Positions 16,952 through 55,215 of a stretch of 64,000 bases of DNA are shown one piece after another. This DNA is from a virus (Duplodnaviria; Caudoviricetes): the IMG/VR virus record IMGVR_UViG_3300042477_000769, one strand, 5' to 3'. Each line of letters begins with the position of its first letter. The first letter of the stretch is position 1. A program made the translations under genes and the position numbers. The notes below the pieces were generated by a model that was given only the letters and a program-made list of their open reading frames with translations, was not told the origin of the DNA and did not search any database.

Positions 16952-17857
16952 ATGGGTAAATTATTAGATAATAATTATGTAGATCAAAAGTTATTATCTA
17001 GATCAATTAAAAGAATTGATAATTATGTTAATATGCTGACTCCAATTAGGTTCACCTGCCTAACTTGTGATTATGTGTGGAAAAGTGCGCCTAATAACAT
17101 TATTAACAATAAATCTAATTGCCCTCAATGCTCCAATCGAATAACCGCCTCCAATGAAGAGATAGACCAAGCTTTACTGGGCCGGACATTCAAAAGAATA
17201 AGCAATTACCTTAACAACCATACGAAAATTAAATTTCAGTGTTTATTAGATAATTTTATTTGGGAAACCACTAGCAAATCTATTCTGTTACTTCACAGTG
17301 GTTGTCCCAAATGTGCTAAAGTTAATAAGTTAACTAACGAGGATGTAGACCTTAAATTAAAAAATAAAAATATTCTTCGCTTACAAGATGTTATCAATTC
17401 GGCTACTAAAATATCCGTCCAATGCCTGACCTGTAGTTTTATATGGAATAGTTCTCCACATAATCTATTAACTAAAAATAGAGGTTGCCCCAAATGTAAC
17501 TTGCCGGGATCTAATGAAAAATCAATACTTACTATGTTGGATAGTTATTGTGTTTCTTATATGTCACAATATAATATAAGACATATAGATTCGGGAGCGC
17601 CAAATTATCGAATAGATATTTTTATTCCGGGCAAAAATTTAGCCATTGAGTATCATGGGCGGCAGCATTATCAACCCACTGGATTTGGCTCTAATAATCC
17701 TCAGTTATGTTTTACTAAACAAGTTCAGCGAGATTCATATTTACGCCAATTCTGTCAAAAAAATAATATTTCTCTTCTAGAAATAGATGGTAGAAAATAT
17801 TATGGTGTCAAATTAAAATCATACGTGATTAATCAAATCATTCCATTATTAAATTAA
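16952..17857 (+). CDS. Homing-endonuclease-like protein: zinc-ribbon repeats + Vsr/DUF559-like nuclease
   Basis: Repeats of C..C...W...P.N.......CP.C; RIDIFIP..NLAIEYHGRQHY, RD, LLEI. Confidence 0.8.
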   Translation: MGKLLDNNYVDQKLLSRSIKRIDNYVNMLTPIRFTCLTCDYVWKSAPNNIINNKSNCPQCSNRITASNEEIDQALLGRTFKRISNYLNNHTKIKFQCLLDNFIWETTSKSILLLHSGCPKCAKVNKLTNEDVDLKLKNKNILRLQDVINSATKISVQCLTCSFIWNSSPHNLLTKNRGCPKCNLPGSNEKSILTMLDSYCVSYMSQYNIRHIDSGAPNYRIDIFIPGKNLAIEYHGRQHYQPTGFGSNNPQLCFTKQVQRDSYLRQFCQKNNISLLEIDGRKYYGVKLKSYVINQIIPLLN

Positions 17858-19733: not shown

Positions 19734-20168
19734 TTGGGAACTGACTCTCGACAAATGAACGGGGGATATTATAGGGGGACTTATGTTATATTTGATCTTA
19801 GGAGAAGCCCATCGGAGTATAATGTGAAAAAACCTAAAGTAGTAAGTTTCTTTCAATTTAAAGATCTTACTTATCAACAAGTAGTAACTGAAATTAATAA
19901 AGAGTTACCTATTAATCTTAAACATAATGAAGAGTTAGTGGATAGGATCCATAAAAAATATCCCATATTAACTAAAACAGAAATCAGCATTATTGTCAAA
20001 GCTGTGTTTCAATCTTTACGCGATTTATTGTTATTAGGAAAGGTATTAAATTTTAATACCTTATTTTTTGATACTAAATTGTATTTTTTTACCCATCTTA
20101 GGGACGGCAATATATTACCTGCACTGAAAGTACAGATGTCGACTCCCCCACCATTGAGGAAAATATGA
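19734..20168 (+). CDS. HU/IHF-like DNA-binding protein (true start probably downstream)
   Basis: ELVDRIHKK...LTKTEISIIVKAVFQSLRDLLLLGKVLNF. Confidence 0.55.
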   Translation: MGTDSRQMNGGYYRGTYVIFDLRRSPSEYNVKKPKVVSFFQFKDLTYQQVVTEINKELPINLKHNEELVDRIHKKYPILTKTEISIIVKAVFQSLRDLLLLGKVLNFNTLFFDTKLYFFTHLRDGNILPALKVQMSTPPPLRKI

Positions 20169-20482
20169 GTGCTAAATTAGAAGAATTTGATGTAGAAATT
20201 GATGAAAGTTTAAATATTAATCTTAATGATATTAAGGATAAAATTCCTACCTTCACCTCCGCTAAATTATGTGAAATCATTGTCTGTGATAGATATTTTG
20301 GGTCTTATCCAGAATTAGCGGTATTAAGTATGCAAGAATTATCTACTCGCCGTATTAATGGCGATACTTTTGATTTTGAAGCCTATATAGATAATTCGTT
20401 TAAAGAATTACCCAAATTAGATTTTTCTTTACCTGACATTGGTAATGTTATGAGGCAATTTGCCGGAAAATTCAAACCATGA
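20165..20482 (+). CDS. Hypothetical protein
   Basis: Overlapping operon gene. Confidence 0.55.
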   Translation: MSAKLEEFDVEIDESLNINLNDIKDKIPTFTSAKLCEIIVCDRYFGSYPELAVLSMQELSTRRINGDTFDFEAYIDNSFKELPKLDFSLPDIGNVMRQFAGKFKP

Positions 20483-21003
20483 ACCTGGAATTAAGAGAAC
20501 AAATTGTTAAACATATATTAGCTAATTTAGCTATTATTCCTTCTACTTATGTTGCTTTGGATAAAAGTAAATCCTTGAAAGGTCAAGAATTTCTGTTACC
20601 TGAAAAGATCAATTTTCAAGATGAACATGGCCATGTATTATCTAATAAATTGTGGGGATGTCAATTTGCTGCGGAACAGCAAGAATTAAAAATATTATTG
20701 GTAGATTGCTCTACTTCTACAGATATCCCAGAGTATGCGGTCCTAGTATCATTAAAAAACCAGCCCATGTATGGAGTTTATTTAGTTGATAACTCCGAGG
20801 TAGAGTCGGAGGCTTTAATTGCCGTATCTTTAAATGGTAAAGATTGGTTAGAAGCTAATACTTATATTCAATCTACTTTTTTATCTGCAATGGAAAATAT
20901 TAAATCTATGGGGTTAGCTTGGTCAAAATGTCAAGAGTACCAAGACAATTTATCTCATTTATTACAGTTTATTAAATTTCATTCTTATGTCTACGGTGAA
21001 TAA
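20479..21003 (+). CDS. Hypothetical protein
   Basis: Overlapping operon gene. Confidence 0.55.
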   Translation: MNLELREQIVKHILANLAIIPSTYVALDKSKSLKGQEFLLPEKINFQDEHGHVLSNKLWGCQFAAEQQELKILLVDCSTSTDIPEYAVLVSLKNQPMYGVYLVDNSEVESEALIAVSLNGKDWLEANTYIQSTFLSAMENIKSMGLAWSKCQEYQDNLSHLLQFIKFHSYVYGE

Positions 21004-21452
21004 TGCGAGGGAAAAAGAAAGATACCCAATTCATTACACAATTTATAACGCAGTGCGTTAGCCAAGGATATTCTCAACAAGAGGAGATGCTAACTATAGC
21101 AAAACATAAAATTGAAGAAATAGATTCTATAATTAAAGAAGCGGAAATAAAAAAAATAGAAAGATCCAAATTATTGGATGTAATTGAGTCTTTAATGTCA
21201 GAACAGGTTAAGTGTGAAGACGATCAAATATTACCACTATATAATATTCAGTATCCTGAAATTAGTCGACAAGTCTGTCATTTAATTAAAACTAAACCTA
21301 TTAGCATTTCTGACATCCAAAATGTTTCTAAAGAGAATATGTTATTTTGTCTTAAACAACTAGTAGAGAATAAAGTTATTTATAAATCAGGAAATTTTTT
21401 ATTACGAGGGGACAACTTTGATAAGTATTTAACTCGGGTTCTTAAAGAGTAA
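21003..21452 (+). CDS. Hypothetical protein, coiled coil + possible winged helix
   Basis: C-terminal FCLKQLVENKVIYKSGNFLLRG. Confidence 0.5.
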   Translation: MRGKKKDTQFITQFITQCVSQGYSQQEEMLTIAKHKIEEIDSIIKEAEIKKIERSKLLDVIESLMSEQVKCEDDQILPLYNIQYPEISRQVCHLIKTKPISISDIQNVSKENMLFCLKQLVENKVIYKSGNFLLRGDNFDKYLTRVLKE

Positions 21453-21455
21453 ATT

Positions 21456-21782
21456 ATGTTTAGCGAATCAATAAGTAAAAAGAAACTATGGCAGTATGTT
21501 AACATTAAGATTAACAGAACTATTCATCATTACCATGTATTTAGCGTTATCTCTCTTTTATTTGAAGAGATTTTATCTGAATTAAAAGATAAGGGTGAAA
21601 TTAAAATTCATAATTTTGGTGTACTTTCCTTAAAACACTTGAAGCCTCGTCATTATTTTGATATTACTCGACAACAAGTCATGAGATCTAATGGATATCG
21701 AATTTTAAGATTTACGCTGGCGCCTCGGCTAAAGAAAAAAATTATTTCGTACCTTGACACCTCTACTAAGGAAATTACATGA
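21456..21782 (+). CDS. HU/IHF-like DNA-binding protein
   Basis: LFEEILSELKDKGEIKIHNFGVLSLKHLKPRHYFDI...LRFTLAPRLK. Confidence 0.75.
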   Translation: MFSESISKKKLWQYVNIKINRTIHHYHVFSVISLLFEEILSELKDKGEIKIHNFGVLSLKHLKPRHYFDITRQQVMRSNGYRILRFTLAPRLKKKIISYLDTSTKEIT

Positions 21783-22153
21783 GAAAAGGCCATCGACCCA
21801 CGGTTTACGTGTGCATACATTATTCTCAAAAAATCCACTCCGTAGTGGAAGCTGGTACCCCAGCCGACGCTTCGGATAATTTTATAAAAGAATTTACGGT
21901 GAAGCCCGACGAAATTTTGGGGCCGTTCTTTAAGAAGAAACCGCCGCTAGTTGAGTCGACTGCTAATTTGATATTTACCAATCAAACTAAAAATGCAGTA
22001 TATAACGATTGGTTAGTCACTGCTTTCTTATTGAAAGAACCTGCAGAGACAGCATTTTTAGTCTTCTTAAAAAGACTTGATGGTAAAAAAGTTCCACTGC
22101 CTACGGGCACTATTACTGTTCCTATTCACGATTTGAGGTTTATTGAATGTTAA
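21779..22153 (+). CDS. Hypothetical protein
   Basis: Overlapping operon gene. Confidence 0.55.
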   Translation: MRKGHRPTVYVCIHYSQKIHSVVEAGTPADASDNFIKEFTVKPDEILGPFFKKKPPLVESTANLIFTNQTKNAVYNDWLVTAFLLKEPAETAFLVFLKRLDGKKVPLPTGTITVPIHDLRFIEC

Positions 22154-22500
22154 CTAAATTATTTACAGAACAAATTAAAAAGAAACTTCTCTCTGACCAA
22201 GAAGAGATCTTACAGAGAGTTTCCCATCGAGCAGATGTTGATACCGATGGCGATGAAGGTGATGAAATACAAGGTAATATGATTATTGAAATGCAAAATC
22301 AATTAAATTCTCGAGATCGAGACAAATTATCCAAAATTACTGAAGCCTTATCTCGAATTGATACTCAAGAATATGGAATCTGTGAAGATTGTGGAGAAGA
22401 AATTTCAGAAAAAAGATTAAATATCAACCCACATTTCATTACATGTATTCTTTGTGCAGAAACTAGAGAGATCGAACAAAAACAGAAACGGAGAGTGTGA
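22147..22500 (+). CDS. dksA: DksA/TraR-family C4 zinc finger regulator
   Basis: Coiled-coil tip GDEGD, EALSRI...YGICEDCGEEISEKRL...CILCAE. Confidence 0.88.
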   Translation: MLTKLFTEQIKKKLLSDQEEILQRVSHRADVDTDGDEGDEIQGNMIIEMQNQLNSRDRDKLSKITEALSRIDTQEYGICEDCGEEISEKRLNINPHFITCILCAETREIEQKQKRRV

Positions 22501-23086
22501 ATTGAATACTATTGTATTAGAAGCTACTGAGCATGGCGATATGCCAATTGATGTGTATCAAAAACTTTCTAATGATAGAATTCTCTTTATCTCTGATGAG
22601 ATTCATGATTCATTAGCGGCAGATATTGCAGCTACTCTTTTGCTAAAGGATGCTGAAGATTCAGATAAGAAAATTACTTTATTTATCAATTCACATGGCG
22701 GAGATATTCGTAATGTTTTGATGATTTGTGATATGATGAATATGATTTCCGCGCCTATTGAGACTGTCTGTGTTGGATCGGCGATGGATGAAGCGGCTAT
22801 TATTTTATCTTCTGGAACTCCTGGCATGAGATTCGCCACAAAAAATGCAGTTATTTCTGCTGGTCAATTAGTTAATACTTGGATGGTCAGATCTAATTTA
22901 ACAGATGCCAAAAAGAATTTGGAGCTTATTACTACTGATAATAAAAGAATGATGGAAATTCTAGCCAAAACTTCTAATAAAACTCTTAAACAGGTTATGT
23001 CTCATTTTGAGAGGCGAGTGTTTATGAATTCGCATCAAGCGATGAAATTTGGTTTAATTGACAAGGTAGTAGCTCTCAAAAAATGA
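22454..23086 (+). CDS. Catalytically inactive ClpP paralog (ClpR-like); likely TTG start 22502
   Basis: DVYQKL..DRILF, LFINSHGG fold motifs; nucleophile loop CVGSAMDEA (Ser to Asp); ISAGQ replaces MIHQP. Confidence 0.8.
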   Translation: MQKLERSNKNRNGECELNTIVLEATEHGDMPIDVYQKLSNDRILFISDEIHDSLAADIAATLLLKDAEDSDKKITLFINSHGGDIRNVLMICDMMNMISAPIETVCVGSAMDEAAIILSSGTPGMRFATKNAVISAGQLVNTWMVRSNLTDAKKNLELITTDNKRMMEILAKTSNKTLKQVMSHFERRVFMNSHQAMKFGLIDKVVALKK

Positions 23087-23676
23087 GGAAAAATATGAAA
23101 AACCATTCTGAACATTTAGCTATGCCCCATTTTTCAAGGTATTCTGACACTTATATTAAATTATCTAAACATAGAGTGATCTTTGTGGCTGAAGATTTTA
23201 CCGCTAAAATGGGAGCCGATTTGTCGGCGGTGTTATTATATTTAGACCATGAAGATCATGCCGCTCCTATTGAAATTTATATTCATTCTCAAGGGGGTGA
23301 AATTTCTGGATTATTTAATATTTATGATGTTATTCAGATGATTTCCGCTCCAGTTAAAACTATCTGTGTTGGTAAATGTTATTCTGCTGGAGCAATGTTA
23401 TTGGCCGCCGGAACCAAAGGGCAACGTTTTGCCATGAAAAATTCTAGCATTATGATTCATGGAATTCAAATGGGATTTCCTATTCCAGGAGAAGATACGA
23501 CCAATTCTAAGAATTTATTTAAATATTTAGAAGAGCATAATGATAGTTTTATTAAAATATTAGCTAATCATACTGGACATTCTTTCGAAAAAGTCAAACA
23601 AGATTGTTTGCAAGATTTATGGATGACGCCAAAACAAGCCTTAGAGTATGGGATTATTGATGGAATAATCCAGTAA
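23083..23676 (+). CDS. clpP: ATP-dependent Clp protease proteolytic subunit
   Basis: YIHSQGG, GKCYSAG (Ser), IMIHG (His), QDLWMTPKQALEYGIID (Asp). Confidence 0.9.
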   Translation: MRKNMKNHSEHLAMPHFSRYSDTYIKLSKHRVIFVAEDFTAKMGADLSAVLLYLDHEDHAAPIEIYIHSQGGEISGLFNIYDVIQMISAPVKTICVGKCYSAGAMLLAAGTKGQRFAMKNSSIMIHGIQMGFPIPGEDTTNSKNLFKYLEEHNDSFIKILANHTGHSFEKVKQDCLQDLWMTPKQALEYGIIDGIIQ

Positions 23677-23703: not shown

Positions 23704-24921
23704 TTATAGAATAATATTCCATAACTTATTTTTATAAGGTTTTAATCTTATTGGCTGAACTAATACAGCCTCTATCCCATTGCTAAAAGCGTCTGGGATT
23801 TCCTTTCTTAATATATTATAAGAGCCATTTACATCAGCATTTATTGTTATTCCAGATTTAGATCTAAATAAACCTCTTGTTAATCTTCTTCCCATATATT
23901 TTTTATGCTTTTTAATAGACTCTAAATCTAGAAAACTACATTTACTAGTATAGCTTTCTTCTCTCTCTACAATATCTATTCCCTCTAAAGCACATTTATA
24001 TTTTAACATCTCAAAAAATTTCCGATGTGGAATATTGACAAAATTTTGATTATTTTTATCACCCATATTAGTCTCTTGTTTCCAGGATTTATTGTGTCCG
24101 ATAACTAATTTAGACACTCCATGAGAAACTAAATGATTAACTAAATATCGGCTAGCTTTATGCATATAATCAGATATTTTATCATTTCGCTTAGAAGTAA
24201 GTTTTTTAATTTGTTTTGAAGTTTTTTGCTCTCCTGTTAATTTAGATTGTAATTCAGATCGTTTTTTATTATAAAACTGATTTATAGATTTTAATGGCCC
24301 TCCTGGAATTATAATAGGAGACCCTTTTGTAAAGGTAACTGTTGCCAAATTAGCGACTCCAGGATCTAAAGCAGCAATAACAGTACCTTTAGATTTAGTT
24401 TTTTCGGTTTTATTATAGACTATTTCAACGGTATGGTACATATCACCTGGAGTGATTCTCACTTGACAAATATCTTTATGTAGAATTTTTGTTGGTAATG
24501 GTAATTCTGCAATCCCAGAAGGTGACATTTTTTTCTTAGATATGGCTTGAGAAGTAAAAATTAATAAATTTCTACCTTTAGTTTTATGCTTAAAACCTGG
24601 TAATTTTGGAGTAGAAGTAAATTTACTAGGGTTCTTCTTAAAAGATTTAAGGGCTTTAAAAAAGTTTTTAAAAGCATTATCAACTTGAATTAATACATGT
24701 TGAGCGACTTTAGCTGGTAAAGCTCGATAATCTATTTGTTTTTCTAAAGCGAACTGCTTATCTAAGGCATGATATCCTAGGTAAGTTCTAGTCATTTCAA
24801 AATGTTTTCTAAATGCATAGACAGCAGAATTATAAAGATTCTTTGATAAAAACAACTTATAATCAATAAGTTTTCCTTTGAAGGATTTTTTATTTATTCT
24901 ATGTCTTTCTACTAACTGCAT
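23704..24921 (-). CDS. tnpB: TnpB-family RNA-guided endonuclease (IS ends not identified)
   Basis: SKNLYNSA, ALDPGVANL, EESYTSKCS, NADVNGSYNI. Confidence 0.9.
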   Translation of the reverse strand: MQLVERHRINKKSFKGKLIDYKLFLSKNLYNSAVYAFRKHFEMTRTYLGYHALDKQFALEKQIDYRALPAKVAQHVLIQVDNAFKNFFKALKSFKKNPSKFTSTPKLPGFKHKTKGRNLLIFTSQAISKKKMSPSGIAELPLPTKILHKDICQVRITPGDMYHTVEIVYNKTEKTKSKGTVIAALDPGVANLATVTFTKGSPIIIPGGPLKSINQFYNKKRSELQSKLTGEQKTSKQIKKLTSKRNDKISDYMHKASRYLVNHLVSHGVSKLVIGHNKSWKQETNMGDKNNQNFVNIPHRKFFEMLKYKCALEGIDIVEREESYTSKCSFLDLESIKKHKKYMGRRLTRGLFRSKSGITINADVNGSYNILRKEIPDAFSNGIEAVLVQPIRLKPYKNKLWNIIL

Positions 24922-25031: not shown

Positions 25032-26297
25032 ATGATTAAATTATCTAGAAAAAAGTCATCTGATCCATTGCAAGAGCATTTACGGGAGACTAAATCTTTA
25101 TGGAATAAAGATGTTTCTAGTTTTATTACTAATCTAATCAATGTAAAAAAAACCATGAATGGGTCTCCTTCTAAATTTCATCCAGAAAAAGGGACTATTA
25201 AAGAACCGATTTTAGGAGATCCGCAGACATTATTGAATGGTTTAGCTAATGATTTTAGTGAAATTATTCAACATGGCAATAAAATAATTAGTGAACAATT
25301 AGAATATTCTAAAAATAGAAAAAAACCGACTGTTAAATCTCCTAGTAATTTGAGTGATGCCGTTCAAAAAGTACTTACTAGTAGCATTGAATACCAGTTA
25401 CTGGCAGAGGGATCCAATCCACTGACACGTTTTTGGACTCGGTTAAAGAATCCAATGATTGGATTTAGTGAACAGGCTGATTTACGTCGAACTCAAATTT
25501 CTATGTTAAATTCTTGCGCTGATTCTTTTTATGATTTAGATAAATTTCAAGTATTAGTAGTTAAATCTTCTAAAGAATCTATTACTGAGGCGCATAAAAA
25601 ATTAGAATCAGCGGCTCATAATTGGAATTTAGTGTATAGAATTTTTAATAAATTTAAATCAACCTCTTCTACCAATAGAGAAAATATAGTTAATACTCAA
25701 CCATCAGTTAATACTGAACTAATTAATTCTCCAGAAGATAATTCATTAAAAAATGATCTGATTAATCCAGAAATAAACATCAAGCAAATGGTGTTGGATT
25801 ATAAAAATAACATCAAATTTTTACCCGAAATTTTCATTTCTAATGAATTAGATGTTGCGGTAGATAAATTTATTTCTAGTCGAGGAAAGAAAGTTGATCT
25901 TGATTTAGATAAATTATATTATCAAGCGATTGCTCAAGTAAATGAACAGTTAAAAACGGATTTTCATTCTTTCCAAGAAATTGGAGATTTCTTTAAAAAA
26001 TCTTCTTCTATGGAAGAAAATATGATTGAAAAGAAAGCTCAAGACTTTCTAAAAAAGTGGTTAGGCAAAACTAAGCATCAATTAAATTTTTTAAATCCAG
26101 GGACCTCTAACTTTAGATTAAATTGCTTTAAAGAAGCGGAAAATATTAAATCTGATCTAAATAAGATAATGAATATTTTAGAAGATTCTATTAATGTCGA
26201 AGAGTTAGAACCTCTAATGAAATCTGTGAATTCTAATTTTGCTAGTCTAAAAGGACTCATGAGTTCCTTATATTTATCCTCTAGGCCCAACAAATGA
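25032..26297 (+). CDS. Hypothetical helical protein
   Basis: 421-aa ORF, no recognised motif. Confidence 0.6.
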   Translation: MIKLSRKKSSDPLQEHLRETKSLWNKDVSSFITNLINVKKTMNGSPSKFHPEKGTIKEPILGDPQTLLNGLANDFSEIIQHGNKIISEQLEYSKNRKKPTVKSPSNLSDAVQKVLTSSIEYQLLAEGSNPLTRFWTRLKNPMIGFSEQADLRRTQISMLNSCADSFYDLDKFQVLVVKSSKESITEAHKKLESAAHNWNLVYRIFNKFKSTSSTNRENIVNTQPSVNTELINSPEDNSLKNDLINPEINIKQMVLDYKNNIKFLPEIFISNELDVAVDKFISSRGKKVDLDLDKLYYQAIAQVNEQLKTDFHSFQEIGDFFKKSSSMEENMIEKKAQDFLKKWLGKTKHQLNFLNPGTSNFRLNCFKEAENIKSDLNKIMNILEDSINVEELEPLMKSVNSNFASLKGLMSSLYLSSRPNK

Positions 26298-31678: not shown

Positions 31679-32998
31679 ATGAAAGAAGACGTGAATAATT
31701 CTAGTTATCTAACTCCCGATATACTAGAAAGCCAGGAGCATTTATCGACAGAAATTCTGGCTAAAATGCATCCTTCGGGAAAATGGTCTAATCCAACTTT
31801 ACCTAGACCTCCATCAAATTTTGTTGATTTGATGAATTGGGCCGTCGAATCCTTTGGACCAGCATTAAAAGACCATGCCGTTTTGAATAAATTTATTCAA
31901 AATAGAATTATTATTGATGGGCAGTTCTTGCATTTTTGTCAAGAACATAATGTCACCGTAGAATGTCTATATAAAGATTCTATTATTTCTTGGCAAACAG
32001 ATTTAAATTTTGAAAAATTCTTTATTCAAGGGGTGTTTTTAATTAAATGCAAAGGTTTTGAATTTATTCATGCTGCCTTATTTCATAAGGGAAATCAAAA
32101 TGAAGACGAAGTAAGTTTCTTTGTTCTGGTTTCTGATAATAATTATGAAAATTATCTTTCTTTTAGAAATTCTTTTGAAGAGTGGATTGTTCAAAGAGAT
32201 AGAAGTAATTTGCATATCAAGGTCATTGATGGGAATGATATTCCATATACTAAAGATTCTTCTTGGGAAGAATTATATTTACCCAATGAATTAAAAACAG
32301 AAATAAAAGAATTAGTAGAAAACTTCTTATCTTCACAAGAGTTTTATCAAAAATCTAAAATTCCATGGAAACGCGGAATTCTGTTGTTTGGGCAACCAGG
32401 TAATGGAAAAACTTCTATTATTAGAACCATCATGTCAGAATATAATTTTAAGCCGATTACTTTTATGCCCGGAGCCTCAGCCGAGGCGATGAGAGAGGCT
32501 TTCTCTTATGCGGAAGAGCAAAGCCCTTCCCTTTTATATATTGAAGATTTAGATTCATTAATTGAATCTGGTTTAGATATTTCTACTTTTCTTAACTTAT
32601 TAGATGGAATTTCAGCTAAAAATGGACTATTAGTGATTGCGACGGCTAATAATATTAATAAATTACAATCCAATATTACTAGTCGACCCTCAAGATTTGA
32701 TAGAAAATTTGAGATTCCATTGCCAAATGAAAAAATGGCTTATATATATCTTAAAAGATGGTTTGGTAACCTCATCACTCCTAAAAAGTGTGAGGATTTA
32801 GCTAATCAGGCAGTTAAATATGAATTATCTTATGCTTACTTAAAAGACTTATATGTATCTTCCATGTTCGAAGCTTTATCTCACAATCGAAAAAAACCTA
32901 GTGCTAAAGATATTGATAATACTTTAGTACGGTTAGTAAAAGATAAAAATATGATGAATAATGGAACTACAATTAGTACGGATAAATATTTTAAATGA
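31679..32998 (+). CDS. AAA+ ATPase
   Basis: GILLFGQPGNGKTS, LYIEDLD, ATAN, RPSRFD. Confidence 0.9.
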   Translation: MKEDVNNSSYLTPDILESQEHLSTEILAKMHPSGKWSNPTLPRPPSNFVDLMNWAVESFGPALKDHAVLNKFIQNRIIIDGQFLHFCQEHNVTVECLYKDSIISWQTDLNFEKFFIQGVFLIKCKGFEFIHAALFHKGNQNEDEVSFFVLVSDNNYENYLSFRNSFEEWIVQRDRSNLHIKVIDGNDIPYTKDSSWEELYLPNELKTEIKELVENFLSSQEFYQKSKIPWKRGILLFGQPGNGKTSIIRTIMSEYNFKPITFMPGASAEAMREAFSYAEEQSPSLLYIEDLDSLIESGLDISTFLNLLDGISAKNGLLVIATANNINKLQSNITSRPSRFDRKFEIPLPNEKMAYIYLKRWFGNLITPKKCEDLANQAVKYELSYAYLKDLYVSSMFEALSHNRKKPSAKDIDNTLVRLVKDKNMMNNGTTISTDKYFK

Positions 32999-51228: not shown

Positions 51229-54200
51229 ATGACTGACTTTGTCTCGTTACATAATCAGACGGATTTCTCTATTCTTGATTCTTTAATGTCCCCCAAAGCA
51301 CTCTTTAATCGAGCCAAAGAATTGGGCCAATCTGCAGTCGCAGTCACAGATCACGGCACACTAGCCGGAGCCTGGGATTCCTTAAAAGCTTCCCGAGAGA
51401 CTGGCGTTAAACTTATTATGGGCTGTGAAATCTACTTTGTAGAAGATGCCCAAAATATTACCGATAAATTTAGACATTTAACCCTGTTAGCTAAAAATGC
51501 TAATGGTTATAAGAACTTACTCACTCTCAATAAAAAGGGCTTTGATCAGGGCTCTTTTATTGGCAAGAGAGTATATCCTATTGTCGATTGGAAGTTGTTA
51601 GAACAATGTTATAACGGGCTAATTTGTCTCACTGGTTGTGGCAATGGAATCATTAGCCAATTATTAATGAATAAAAAGTTTGATGAAGTAGAAACTACTG
51701 TCCTGAAACTGAAACAGTTATTTGGAGATAATTTAGGCATTGAAATTCTTCCCAATAATATGAAGCGGGGCTCTAATATTTATAATGATGAAATTGATCA
51801 ACAATTTCTCAATATGAAGCTGATTAATTTGGGCAAAACACACAATATTAAAATTGTGCCCACCTGCAATGCTCATTATGTGAAGAAAGAAGATCATGAT
51901 ATTCATGATGTTTTTCTAGCTATTGGTTCTCATCAACCAAAATATTCTAATTTTAGAATTAAATATAATGTACCAGATTTTTATCTTAAATCTGCCGAAG
52001 AAGTTAAAAACTTCTTTGCTAGAAATCATGGCGAAGAATTAGCAGAAGAATGGTGTAATAATACGGTATATTTCGCCAATTTATGCGAAACTCCAGATTG
52101 GATTGACCCTAAATACTCTAATCCTTCTGGAAAAGAATTACCGATCTTCCCGGTCAAAGATGAGACAGATTATCCTGAATTTGTACACTGGCTGGAACTT
52201 CAACCGCCAGAAGTTAAATTATTAGATATTGATAAACAATATTTGAGATTTAAATGTCAAGCCGCTTTTTCCTCTCGTATTAAGGATTTATCTCCTGATA
52301 ATATGGAAAACTATCAACAGCGCTTGTTAGAAGAGCTAGATGTTATTGAATATCATGGCTTTTCTAGCTACATGTTAATTGTGGCAGATTATATTAATTG
52401 GGCTCGTCGTAATGAGATTGCCGTAGGAGAAGGTCGAGGCTGCCTCACGGGTGATACCCAAGTCTTAACTACTCAAGGATTTAAATTAATCAAAGACCTG
52501 TCTGTGACAGATACTGTGTTTAGTCATACTGGAAATATGAAAACTATTTCTAAATTATTTAAATTTGACGTATCCAATGAAAAATTATTAAAGTTTAAAA
52601 CACAGCAATCGTTTACGGACCTCACCATGACTTCGGATCATAAGGTGCTAATTGCTAAATCTCAAGATTTAGATAAATATTATTTTTACCCACCTAAAAA
52701 AGTTAAAGGTAAAATTAAAAGCTTTAATCCCCACTTGGAATGGGTGCCGGCTCACCAAATAAAAGTAGGAGATTATTTCTTTACTCCTAAATTAAATCGT
52801 TCCATTGACAACTTATCAGATATTGATCTTGCTCAATACAGCGACTCAATCATAGAAAATGATTTTATTGTCAGCAAAATTTACTTTACTAGCCCCCTCT
52901 CTTTACGCGCTTTACATAAAGTATCTCCAATCAGCTTTGAAAGTTTGAGAAAAATCAAAAATAACAAACCTATTGCTGATACACAAATTAATTTACTTCA
53001 ACAATACCTGTCTTCTACTGGGTCGTCTCTTCAAGATTTTGTCAATCATAAAAACTATAAATATAGCCGAATTCAAAGATTTATTAAAATTGATAATGAT
53101 TTCGCTTATTTATTAGGCCGATGGATCGGTGATGGATCCTTTCATGGAAATAAAGGGATTTCTATCTGTTTTAATAGTAAAGATATCGTAGGTCGAGAAA
53201 AAATAAAATCCTATCTCACTAAACTAGGATTTTATGTCTGCCAAGAAAATAGAAAAAATAATAATACCTTATTAACTGTTTCTAATAAGGCTATGTATTC
53301 TTTATTTAAAGAATTATTTCCGAATTATCATAGTTCTCAAACTAAACATATGCCAAATATTTTTCGTTTATTTTCTGATGAACTAATTCGTCATCTGTTA
53401 TTAGGATTATTAGAATCAGATGGTTGTGTTAATAATTATGAAAAAATAAAAACTACTAGCCAAACTTTAGCTCTGCAAGTAAAAGAAGCGTTAAATTATT
53501 TATCACTCCCCTCCTCTATTTATACAGAAGAAAACCCGAAAAGATATCAAGTAGCTACCTCTACTGCTTTTACCATTGCTTTTAATGGAATTAAAACTAA
53601 ACCTAATCCACATATCCACCGAACAAATCAAGGTTTTTATAGTAAAGTAGTTAGTATAGTGGAAACTACTGCTGATTTTGTCTATGATTTTACTGTTCCA
53701 GATGATCATAGCTATCTTACTACCAGTGGAATAGTTCATAATAGTGTAGGAGGCTCTTTAATTGCTTTCTTACTAGGAATTCATCAAGCAGACCCGATTA
53801 AGTATGATCTGATTTTTGCTCGATTTCATAATAAGGAGAAGAGCAGCTTTCCGGATATAGACACCGACTTCGCCCCCTCAGGTCGCGAAAAAGTCCAAGC
53901 CTATGTTCGCCAAAAATATGGAGAGGAACACGTAGCCCACGTCTCTAACGTTAATACTATTACCCCCAAGGTGTATGTTCGCGATATTGCGAGAGCCTGC
54001 GAATTAGGCGGCTCCAGAGAAGAAGCCGTTCGGATTGGTAATGATGTTGCCGATTGCATTCCATCAGATATTCATTCCATTGATGATGCGTTAGCTAAAG
54101 TTCCATTATTTGCTGAATATTGTAAAAAATATCCAGAATTAGAAAAGTATAAAAGCATTTGCGGAAAATATCGAGCTTGGTCTACTCATGCCGGAGGAAT

Positions 54201-55215
54201 TATTATTTCTGCCCGACCACTAACCGGATTAATTCCCCTGAGACGAGATAAAGATGGTGCCCTAGCTATTGAATATGATAAAGATAAAGCAGAAGAAAAC
54301 GGTCTAGTTAAAATGGATACTTTAGGTCTCTCCACTTTAGATATTATTGGAGAAACTTATCGTATTATTAAAGAACGCGGCAAAGAAGTGCCTCCCGATC
54401 AATTAGATTATGATGTTCATGATGCTCCTTCTTATGATTTGATTGCTAATGGCGATACCTTTTGCGTCTTTCAATTAGGGACTAGTGCTGGTACCGTAGA
54501 CTTATGCCGTCGAATTAAACCAGATAGTATCAATGATTTAGCCAATATTAATGCCTTGGCCCGACCCTCCGCTCGTGAGATGAGAAATGATTTCATTAAA
54601 ACTAAAAATGGAGGTAAGCCGGTTGCTTTATTGCATTCTAAATTAGCTCGAGCTTTTAATAGTACTTATGGCTTCGGATTATATGAAGAATGTTTAATGT
54701 ATCTGGCTCAAGATATTGCTGGTTGGAGCTTGCACTCAGCTGATAGATTAAGAAAATTAACTAAAGAAAAAGGTAAGAATCCTAAAAAGGTCCAACAATG
54801 GAAAGCAGAATTTATTGCTGATTCTGTTAAAATGGGCGTTCAAGAATTAATTGCTCAACGTATATGGAGTGAGGTAATTGAGCCTTTCCAGGGATATGGG
54901 TTCAACCGTTCCTTGTCCCTTTTTGAAATGATTGATATATATTCTAATGATGGTAGATTTATAAAGTCTAAACCTATAGGAGAAGTAAAACCAGGAGAAT
55001 ATGTGCGTTCACGAGATGAAGCTACTCAAAAAGAGATTTTTGTCGAAGTAAAGGCGAATCATGATCATGGTATTTTACCTTTAGTAGAGGTAGAATTAGA
55101 AACCGGCGAAACAGTCAAATGTACTATGGATCATAAGTTTAGAATTCAAGAAAATAAAGAGATGGTGCCATTATGGCAAATCTTAAGAGACAATTTATCA
55201 ATAGTGTTAGGTTAA
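51229..55215 (+). CDS. dnaE: DNA polymerase III alpha, N-terminal fragment (PHP + polymerase) with one contiguous intein and a terminal split-intein N half
   Basis: SLHNQTDFS, VTDHG, GRG|S, PDIDTDF, STHAGG, VKMDTLGL, YEE, GYGFNR. Confidence 0.95.
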   Translation: MTDFVSLHNQTDFSILDSLMSPKALFNRAKELGQSAVAVTDHGTLAGAWDSLKASRETGVKLIMGCEIYFVEDAQNITDKFRHLTLLAKNANGYKNLLTLNKKGFDQGSFIGKRVYPIVDWKLLEQCYNGLICLTGCGNGIISQLLMNKKFDEVETTVLKLKQLFGDNLGIEILPNNMKRGSNIYNDEIDQQFLNMKLINLGKTHNIKIVPTCNAHYVKKEDHDIHDVFLAIGSHQPKYSNFRIKYNVPDFYLKSAEEVKNFFARNHGEELAEEWCNNTVYFANLCETPDWIDPKYSNPSGKELPIFPVKDETDYPEFVHWLELQPPEVKLLDIDKQYLRFKCQAAFSSRIKDLSPDNMENYQQRLLEELDVIEYHGFSSYMLIVADYINWARRNEIAVGEGRGCLTGDTQVLTTQGFKLIKDLSVTDTVFSHTGNMKTISKLFKFDVSNEKLLKFKTQQSFTDLTMTSDHKVLIAKSQDLDKYYFYPPKKVKGKIKSFNPHLEWVPAHQIKVGDYFFTPKLNRSIDNLSDIDLAQYSDSIIENDFIVSKIYFTSPLSLRALHKVSPISFESLRKIKNNKPIADTQINLLQQYLSSTGSSLQDFVNHKNYKYSRIQRFIKIDNDFAYLLGRWIGDGSFHGNKGISICFNSKDIVGREKIKSYLTKLGFYVCQENRKNNNTLLTVSNKAMYSLFKELFPNYHSSQTKHMPNIFRLFSDELIRHLLLGLLESDGCVNNYEKIKTTSQTLALQVKEALNYLSLPSSIYTEENPKRYQVATSTAFTIAFNGIKTKPNPHIHRTNQGFYSKVVSIVETTADFVYDFTVPDDHSYLTTSGIVHNSVGGSLIAFLLGIHQADPIKYDLIFARFHNKEKSSFPDIDTDFAPSGREKVQAYVRQKYGEEHVAHVSNVNTITPKVYVRDIARACELGGSREEAVRIGNDVADCIPSDIHSIDDALAKVPLFAEYCKKYPELEKYKSICGKYRAWSTHAGGIIISARPLTGLIPLRRDKDGALAIEYDKDKAEENGLVKMDTLGLSTLDIIGETYRIIKERGKEVPPDQLDYDVHDAPSYDLIANGDTFCVFQLGTSAGTVDLCRRIKPDSINDLANINALARPSAREMRNDFIKTKNGGKPVALLHSKLARAFNSTYGFGLYEECLMYLAQDIAGWSLHSADRLRKLTKEKGKNPKKVQQWKAEFIADSVKMGVQELIAQRIWSEVIEPFQGYGFNRSLSLFEMIDIYSNDGRFIKSKPIGEVKPGEYVRSRDEATQKEIFVEVKANHDHGILPLVEVELETGETVKCTMDHKFRIQENKEMVPLWQILRDNLSIVLG
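52441..53742 (+). mobile_element. Contiguous 434-aa intein with LAGLIDADG endonuclease
   Basis: GRG|CLTGDTQV ... MTSDHKV ... LLGRWIGDGS ... LLGLLESDG ... VYDFTV...SGIVHN|SVGG. Confidence 0.95.
54910..55212 (+). mobile_element. Split intein N-fragment (101 aa, starts with Ser)
   Basis: GFNR|SLSLFEMI...PIGEVKPGEYV...VKCTMDHKF followed by stop. Confidence 0.88.

Follow-up and report, generated by a model that had tools for sequence, protein, structure and literature searches.

A triad-deficient ClpP paralog paired with an intact ClpP in a clade of huge phages

The Clp proteases of cyanobacteria, plastids, and apicoplasts include non-catalytic ClpR subunits, and the reason for keeping such dead subunits is still debated. 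The cyanobacterial ClpP3/R assembly is a mixed core that works with ClpC. In bacteria with ClpP1 and ClpP2, the catalytic residues are kept, or nearly so, in both paralogs, and a single ring presumably faces the ATPase. Mixed plastid cores have been documented for the Chlamydomonas chloroplast (bioRxiv 10.1101/2021.07.26.453741) and for Arabidopsis CLPPR (PMC6508832). ClpP is also known from jumbo phages, where it has been interpreted as directed against host proteins (Iyer et al. 2021, PMC7824862); Atu_ph07 has a set of Clp genes (PMC6102473), and phage G encodes adjacent ClpP and ClpX along with a transfer-messenger RNA (tmRNA), both proteins having been found in its virions (PMC12484599). 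Our literature search found no paper on a phage ClpP paralog that is catalytically dead. Here we describe such a gene in 64,000 nucleotides of DNA from the IMG/VR virus record IMGVR_UViG_3300042477_000769 (Duplodnaviria; Caudoviricetes), a stretch referred to below as the window. It encodes a ClpP-fold protein predicted to be inactive (P1) and lies directly upstream of a gene for a ClpP with an intact Ser-His-Asp triad (P2).

The pair resembles each of the described systems in part. As with clpR and clpP3 of cyanobacteria, a triad-deficient ClpP-fold gene sits directly upstream of an active paralog. However, ClpR falls within the cellular ClpP clade, whereas P1 and P2 lie across a branch with 97% support; the catalytic His is kept in ClpR of four of five genomes, whereas P1 has lost all three residues; and, unlike cyanobacteria, the phage records that we searched carry no ClpC/ClpA-type gene bearing the docking loop. 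The ClpP/ClpR cores of plastids and apicoplasts offer a parallel in that selection keeps non-catalytic subunits in a mixed proteolytic chamber, co-assembly being presumed in the phage case. Those cores have many paralogs and cyanobacterial descent, whereas the phages have a single dead and a single live gene, both of viral descent. Two tandem paralogs likewise underlie the ClpP1/ClpP2 hetero-tetradecamers of M. tuberculosis, Listeria, and Pseudomonas, but P1 keeps no catalytic residue. Jumbo-phage ClpPs are, like the pair, true ClpP-type genes in very large phages, often with other Clp parts or a tmRNA; they differ in being single active genes, often accompanied by a phage ClpX, ClpA, or ClpS.

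Active sites and fold of P1 and P2

Both proteins match the PF00574 (CLP_protease) model over their full lengths (E-values in Table 1; for P2, 166.7 bits over profile positions 5-180 of 182), and the best NCBIfam models for P1 and P2 are those of general ClpP, at 159 and 161 bits. P1 and P2 share 33% identity across 188 residues (E 2e-37). In an alignment to H. pylori ClpP (2zl0) and its Ser-to-Ala mutant (2zl3), the position of the Ser nucleophile is occupied in P1 by Asp96 (AMDEA), that of the catalytic His by Gly121 (ISAGQ), and that of the catalytic Asp by Arg172 (FERRV). P2 has Ser, His, and Asp at all of the aligned triad positions and matches ClpP chains in the PDB at E 2.5e-35. Judged by sequence, P2 is a ClpP-family member (PF00574, MEROPS S14), with both a full-length match and a triad, and P1 is predicted to be inactive as a peptidase, its triad being gone. 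An earlier note on this DNA, made without database searches, had called the genes a ClpR/ClpP pair in which the first protein lacks the Ser and the His and the second keeps its triad; alignment to solved ClpPs bears out both readings of the active sites and adds the loss of the Asp from P1.

The rest of P1 appears to be intact. An AlphaFold2 model built from a 94-sequence alignment has a predicted local distance difference test (pLDDT) score of 92.7 and contains the N-terminal beta-hairpin, the head domain, and the long handle helix, consistent with a complete ClpP fold. In a Foldseek comparison with solved ClpP chains, the model gives a template modeling (TM) score of 0.94 and a root-mean-square deviation of 1.5 A over 191 columns. 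ClpP2 of the M. tuberculosis ClpP1P2 complex is among the best structural matches, and no ClpR chain occurs among the best 60 of 105 solved relatives of P1.

We assigned E. coli numbering to P1 and P2 residues via a cyanobacterial ClpP1. By this numbering, the P1 orthologs retain E8, G13, E14, D18, and Y20 of the canonical N-terminal axial loop. The N-terminus of P2 is divergent, with a two-residue gap at positions 12-13 and no conservation of E8, R12, or G13, although Y20 and nearby residues are kept; P2 therefore appears not to have a canonical axial loop. The handle regions are family-specific in P1 and P2 alike.

Conservation, pairing, and origin of the dead copy

The loss of the triad in P1 is old and maintained. 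All 120 of the best P1 homologs (68-99% identity) are without it; in place of Ser they carry D, N, or E, in place of His S, G, N, or C, and in place of Asp R, K, Q, or T. An exhaustive search, with representatives at 50% identity, added about 38 clusters that are 31-65% identical to P1, none with a triad. Homologs of the first gene with a retained triad, which the earlier note had named beforehand as the finding that would speak against it, were thus not encountered. Throughout the deep P1 family the nucleophile position is highly variable and the N-terminus, MNT[IL][IV]xE, is near-invariant; the reading frame stays open and the length is conserved across clusters that are just 30-50% identical. 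At E 1e-10 the family has 731 relatives, on contigs of up to 480 kb.

Pairing with a live partner is equally consistent. Thirty P1-type loci in IMG/VR (36-72% identity to P1) all have a dksA-like gene directly upstream and a live P2-type gene directly downstream. Searching from the P2 side, we found a dead gene upstream in 21 of 21 loci whose P2-type protein has at least 45% identity; ClpPs that are 44% identical to P2 or less are single and live. Both searches combined give 41 distinct paired loci with 28 unique pairs, and in every one of these pairs the P1-type protein is without a triad and that of the P2-type partner reads S-H-D or S-H-E. This dead-then-live arrangement is far beyond chance. 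Mean pairwise identity over 20 pairs is 56.7% for P1 versus 55.1% for P2, indicating that the dead copy is under constraint at least equal to that on the live copy. Viral-contig searches with three distant dead-family representatives gave no useful matches, and the GenBank phage collection that we searched has no P1- or P2-family member above 40% identity. The huge phages LR756504 and LR745206, considered as further carriers of the pair, each have a single live ClpP and no pair.

We compared the pair with cyanobacterial ClpR by using all ClpP paralogs from five cyanobacterial genomes. In all five, clpR lies directly upstream of clpP3. The ClpR triad positions read G-H-M/L in four of the genomes, with the His retained; the fifth, Capilliphycus salinus (G009:C1:6185204-6186462), has two tandem ClpR-like genes upstream of clpP3 that read G-T-T and G-N-M, with the His lost. 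In a 136-row tree the dead family forms one clade and the P2 family another, each with a support of 99 in the Shimodaira-Hasegawa-like approximate likelihood ratio test (SH-aLRT), and ClpR groups with ClpP3 deep within the cellular ClpP clade. In a 58-row tree the P1 and P2 families share one side of a 97% branch with other non-canonical ClpPs. A topology constrained to unite the P1 family with ClpR is worse by 57.4 units of log-likelihood (delta lnL) and is rejected by the approximately unbiased (AU) test (p 0.0019). On these trees, P1 is not a cyanobacterial ClpR by descent and evolved independently. The phylogeny proposed in the earlier note as a check against cyanobacterial ClpR, once run, places the P1 family outside the cellular ClpP/ClpR group; what survives of its ClpR/ClpP pair is a dead paralog adjoining an active ClpP, not membership in the ClpR lineage.

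Two distant phage contigs shed light on how the pair may have arisen. L224 (2430-5844) and L227 (2537-6315) carry a dksA/traR gene, a single live ClpP, one or more genes of unknown function, and a DUF192 gene, with no dead copy, and their ClpPs branch outside the P1 and P2 pair. This module is probably the state before duplication. Because a single live ClpP occurs in these syntenic loci and branches outside the pair, the simplest history points to a tandem duplication within a phage lineage. The P1 and P2 families are also sisters in our trees, although with weak support (75, then 70), and synteny is the stronger of the two arguments. The stem branch measures 0.61 for the upstream, dead copy versus 0.26; on the simplest history, the upstream copy changed fast after duplication and was then conserved. 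The phage pair would be a second, independent origin of the ClpR/ClpP design, in a minimal two-gene form and in a large, diverse viral clade, and would offer a simple system for testing the role of a dead subunit.

A possible motor, the tmRNA, and competing readings

No Clp ATPase of the ClpX/ClpA type is encoded in the window, in agreement with the earlier note, and the same holds for near-complete relatives. We searched four related records (G001-G004), two of which are 97-100% complete. Each has exactly two PF00574 genes; none has a ClpB_D2-small, ClpS, or SmpB match, and their AAA_2 matches are at noise level only. The source of those weak matches, a conserved 370-aa AAA protein, resembles CLPB only remotely and weakly and is without an aromatic pore loop, and we set it aside as a partner. 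Thirteen further records yielded one Hsp100, a two-ring protein of 739 aa in the 473-kb record G012 (L286:1213-3429, minus strand). It was also rejected, as its best match is ClpB and the loop that carries the docking tripeptide in ClpA and ClpC is present without the tripeptide. This Hsp100 has a ClpA-like length and apparently no long middle domain.

The AAA+ protein encoded from position 31679, which the earlier note had put forward as a candidate partner, is conserved nearby: in all four relatives checked (L202-L205), homologs that are 60-73% identical are encoded 2.4-7.4 kb downstream of the pair. It does not bear the marks of a threading unfoldase or of ClpP docking, since neither an aromatic pore loop nor an [ILMV]-G-[FL] loop is conserved in it and its Walker B motif reads ED rather than DE; these features do not support a role as a ClpP unfoldase. 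It has an N-terminal domain of about 200 aa without assignment, a Walker B of I-E-D-L-D, and a conserved DKY[FL]K near the C-terminus. With no docking-competent Clp ATPase in the phage records, a host unfoldase would be the most economical partner.

The window does contain the tmRNA, as the earlier note had it. Its tag frame (11908-11949) translates to ANDNAFAPQALVA; tags of relatives are ANDNAFAPLALAA, ANDNAFAPMALAA, and ANDNNAFVQMPLAA, with the ends ALAA or PLAA, and across the clade the tags end in LAA or LVA. In ssrA-mediated degradation ClpX recognizes a C-terminal LAA, for which LVA is a commonly used strong variant. Of the 16 clade records, 14 have a tmRNA, among them five of the six that are at least 90% complete, and it usually lies 8-15 kb from the pair. 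We infer a functional tie between the two.

Our preferred reading, which we hold with about even confidence, is that P1 and P2 form a mixed Clp core of dead and live subunits that a host motor drives. The two proteins would be the subunits of a phage-specific mixed proteolytic core, with P2 contributing the active sites and P1 acting as a structural, non-catalytic subunit that brings a canonical axial gating hairpin. A host Clp ATPase would power this core, with ClpX as the leading candidate given the LAA or LVA ends of the phage tmRNA tags. In that case the pair would join the tmRNA, bS21, peptide deformylase, and trigger factor in a gene set for translation and protein quality, and would add to, or re-specify, the degradation capacity of the infected cell.

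Several points weigh against this reading. Physical assembly of P1 with P2 is something we infer, as are the stoichiometry, the host ATPase, and the substrates; the presence of ClpX in the host is assumed. The hydrophobic docking pocket of P1 has Thr at 60 and 114, and that of P2 is more canonical (Tyr62, Phe/Leu114). Since pocket and N-terminal features are split in this way between the two proteins, sequence alone cannot assign the ATPase-facing subunit or tell mixed from pure rings. The tmRNA is a regional neighbor of the pair, not an operon partner, and G017, a record that is 92% complete, has the pair and no tmRNA, so that the link to the tmRNA is not obligatory.

A more specific and more tentative form of the mixed core would make P1 an independently evolved phage ClpR, with a P1 face that docks the host ClpX or ClpA motor; the phage chamber would replace that of the host and the engine would be kept. 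If so, a docking P1 face combined with an LAA/LVA tag on the tmRNA would let the phage choose which proteins are destroyed in the infected cell. More broadly, the pair would suggest that huge phages supply their own chambers, tags, and co-chaperones yet borrow the ATP-driven motors of their hosts.

A different use of the same proteins, which we consider unlikely, is a take-over or poisoning of host proteolysis. Here P1 would mix into host ClpP rings, or would cap host ClpX or ClpA via its N-terminal loops, lowering host ClpXP/ClpAP activity against phage proteins, with P2 supplying a replacement activity of other specificity. The canonical axial loop and strong conservation of P1 would suit this role, as would a phage without a docking-competent ATPase of its own, and jumbo-phage ClpP and ClpS genes have been interpreted as tools against host proteins (PMC7824862). 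However, P1 shares only about 30-35% identity with cellular ClpPs and has a family-specific handle, which disfavors easy mixing with host subunits, and a pure poison would need no invariably linked active partner.

The pair could instead be a virion- or head-associated protease that processes phage proteins in assembly or is itself packaged, as ClpP and ClpX of phage G were detected by virion proteomics (PMC12484599). We think this improbable. The top PHROG matches of the pair are head maturation protease families, but they score 45 and 93 bits versus 150-167 bits for true ClpP models, and the NCBIfam model NF045542 (Clp_rel_HeadMat), with a cut-off of 120 bits, gives only 41 and 56.7. S77/S78 prohead proteases were not found in the relatives with Pfam, in a search in which the S77 positive control also gave no signal. 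Against a virion role, the termini of P1 and P2 are without the proposed Lys-x-Ala processing motif, and the neighbors of the pair are genes for HU, DksA, an FtsK-like ATPase, a topoisomerase, and translation proteins.

We give a similarly small chance to a non-Clp phage partner, either the AAA+ protein at 31679 or the 421-aa protein encoded downstream of the pair, or to an ATP-independent peptidase. Both candidates owe their interest to their constancy, the former in four of the four relatives checked and the latter as the gene after the pair in 29 of 30 loci. The AAA+ protein, as noted, has neither the aromatic pore loop nor a conserved docking tripeptide, and its Walker B is swapped; the 421-aa protein has no NTPase motif or recognizable fold. 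Finally, that P1 is a decaying duplicate without function is scarcely credible: the loss of all three catalytic residues and the wide variation at the nucleophile position in the deep family are what decay would produce, but the conservation data already contradict it, with an open frame, conserved length, a near-invariant N-terminus at 30-50% cluster identity, and conservation equal to that of the active partner, and P1 is modeled with a confident, complete fold.

Gene order and other features of the window

The dksA/traR-type, P1, and P2 genes are the last three in a run of nine (19734-23676) with gaps of about 8 nt or less (Table 1). The P1 start is most likely the TTG at 22502, which is 7 nt after a GGAG and 1 nt past the dksA stop, rather than the GTG at 22454 where the earlier note began the gene. 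For P2 the most likely start is the ATG at 23095, which is preceded by GAGGA; a gene call of 193 aa identical to P2 from this ATG is on record. With that start an 8-nt gap separates the two genes, and only the alternative ATG at 23083 gives a 4-base overlap. Of the tandem overlapping paralogs first described, the tandem paralogs stand and the overlap depends on this second choice. Under either start the two genes are tightly coupled.

Table 1. Coordinates of the gene pair and of associated features in the window
Feature	Coordinates	Strand	Evidence and remarks
tmRNA	11817..12172	+	Rfam RF00023, 62.9 bits
dksA/traR-type C4 zinc-finger gene	22147..22500	+	PF01258 E 5e-10, phrog_54; translationally coupled to P1
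P1, ClpP-fold subunit predicted to be catalytically dead, 194 aa, TTG start	22502..23086	+	PF00574 E 5.6e-44
P2, ClpP with Ser-His-Asp triad intact, 193 aa	23095..23676 (alternative ATG 23083)	+	PF00574 E 6.5e-49
TnpB (IS605 OrfB) element, outside the module	23704..24921	-	PF01385, PF07282
421-aa conserved protein downstream of the pair	25032..26297	+	homolog after the pair in 29/30 loci
Classic-clade AAA+ protein, examined as candidate partner	31679..32998	+	nearest solved relatives VAT, Cdc48, YjoB

This arrangement recurs among 20 unique orthologous pairs. P1 starts with TTG in 17 of them, with ATG in two, and with GTG in one; the dksA stop lies 1-4 nt upstream of the P1 start in most, and the AGAGG/GGAG ahead of that start (window 22490-22504) is located within the end of the dksA-like gene. 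In most loci the P2 start falls within a span from 4 nt before the P1 stop ends to 9 nt beyond it. A conserved weak TTG start together with this coupling may determine how many dead subunits are made per live one. Promoter and terminator scans gave no signal above chance.

Downstream, the TnpB element splits the junction between P2 and the 421-aa gene, a junction that is intact, with TnpB absent, in the related loci examined. The 421-aa protein is helical, has no match in Pfam, PHROG, or Atlas, and is followed by a DUF192 gene. The surroundings of the pair, with the neighbors listed above, are those of replication and proteostasis and are non-structural. The window also codes for bS21, peptide deformylase, and trigger factor, in keeping with a set of phage tools that serve translation and protein quality control.

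At about 32% GC the window is AT-rich, and its gene array is almost one-stranded. It belongs to a huge phage from a lake: identical copies of P1 and P2 sit on a 259-kb contig, and the contigs of relatives reach 450-480 kb. Three further genes carry unusual domain combinations. The gene for the DNA polymerase III alpha subunit (51229-55215) has intein marks (Hint, Intein_splicing, LAGLIDADG) between the PHP and polymerase domains. A RecA-family protein (59429-61324) combines an N-terminal treble-clef zinc finger (DUF4379/CapR) with a DUF559 endonuclease-like segment, and the same zinc finger is carried by a 301-aa protein encoded at 16952-17857.

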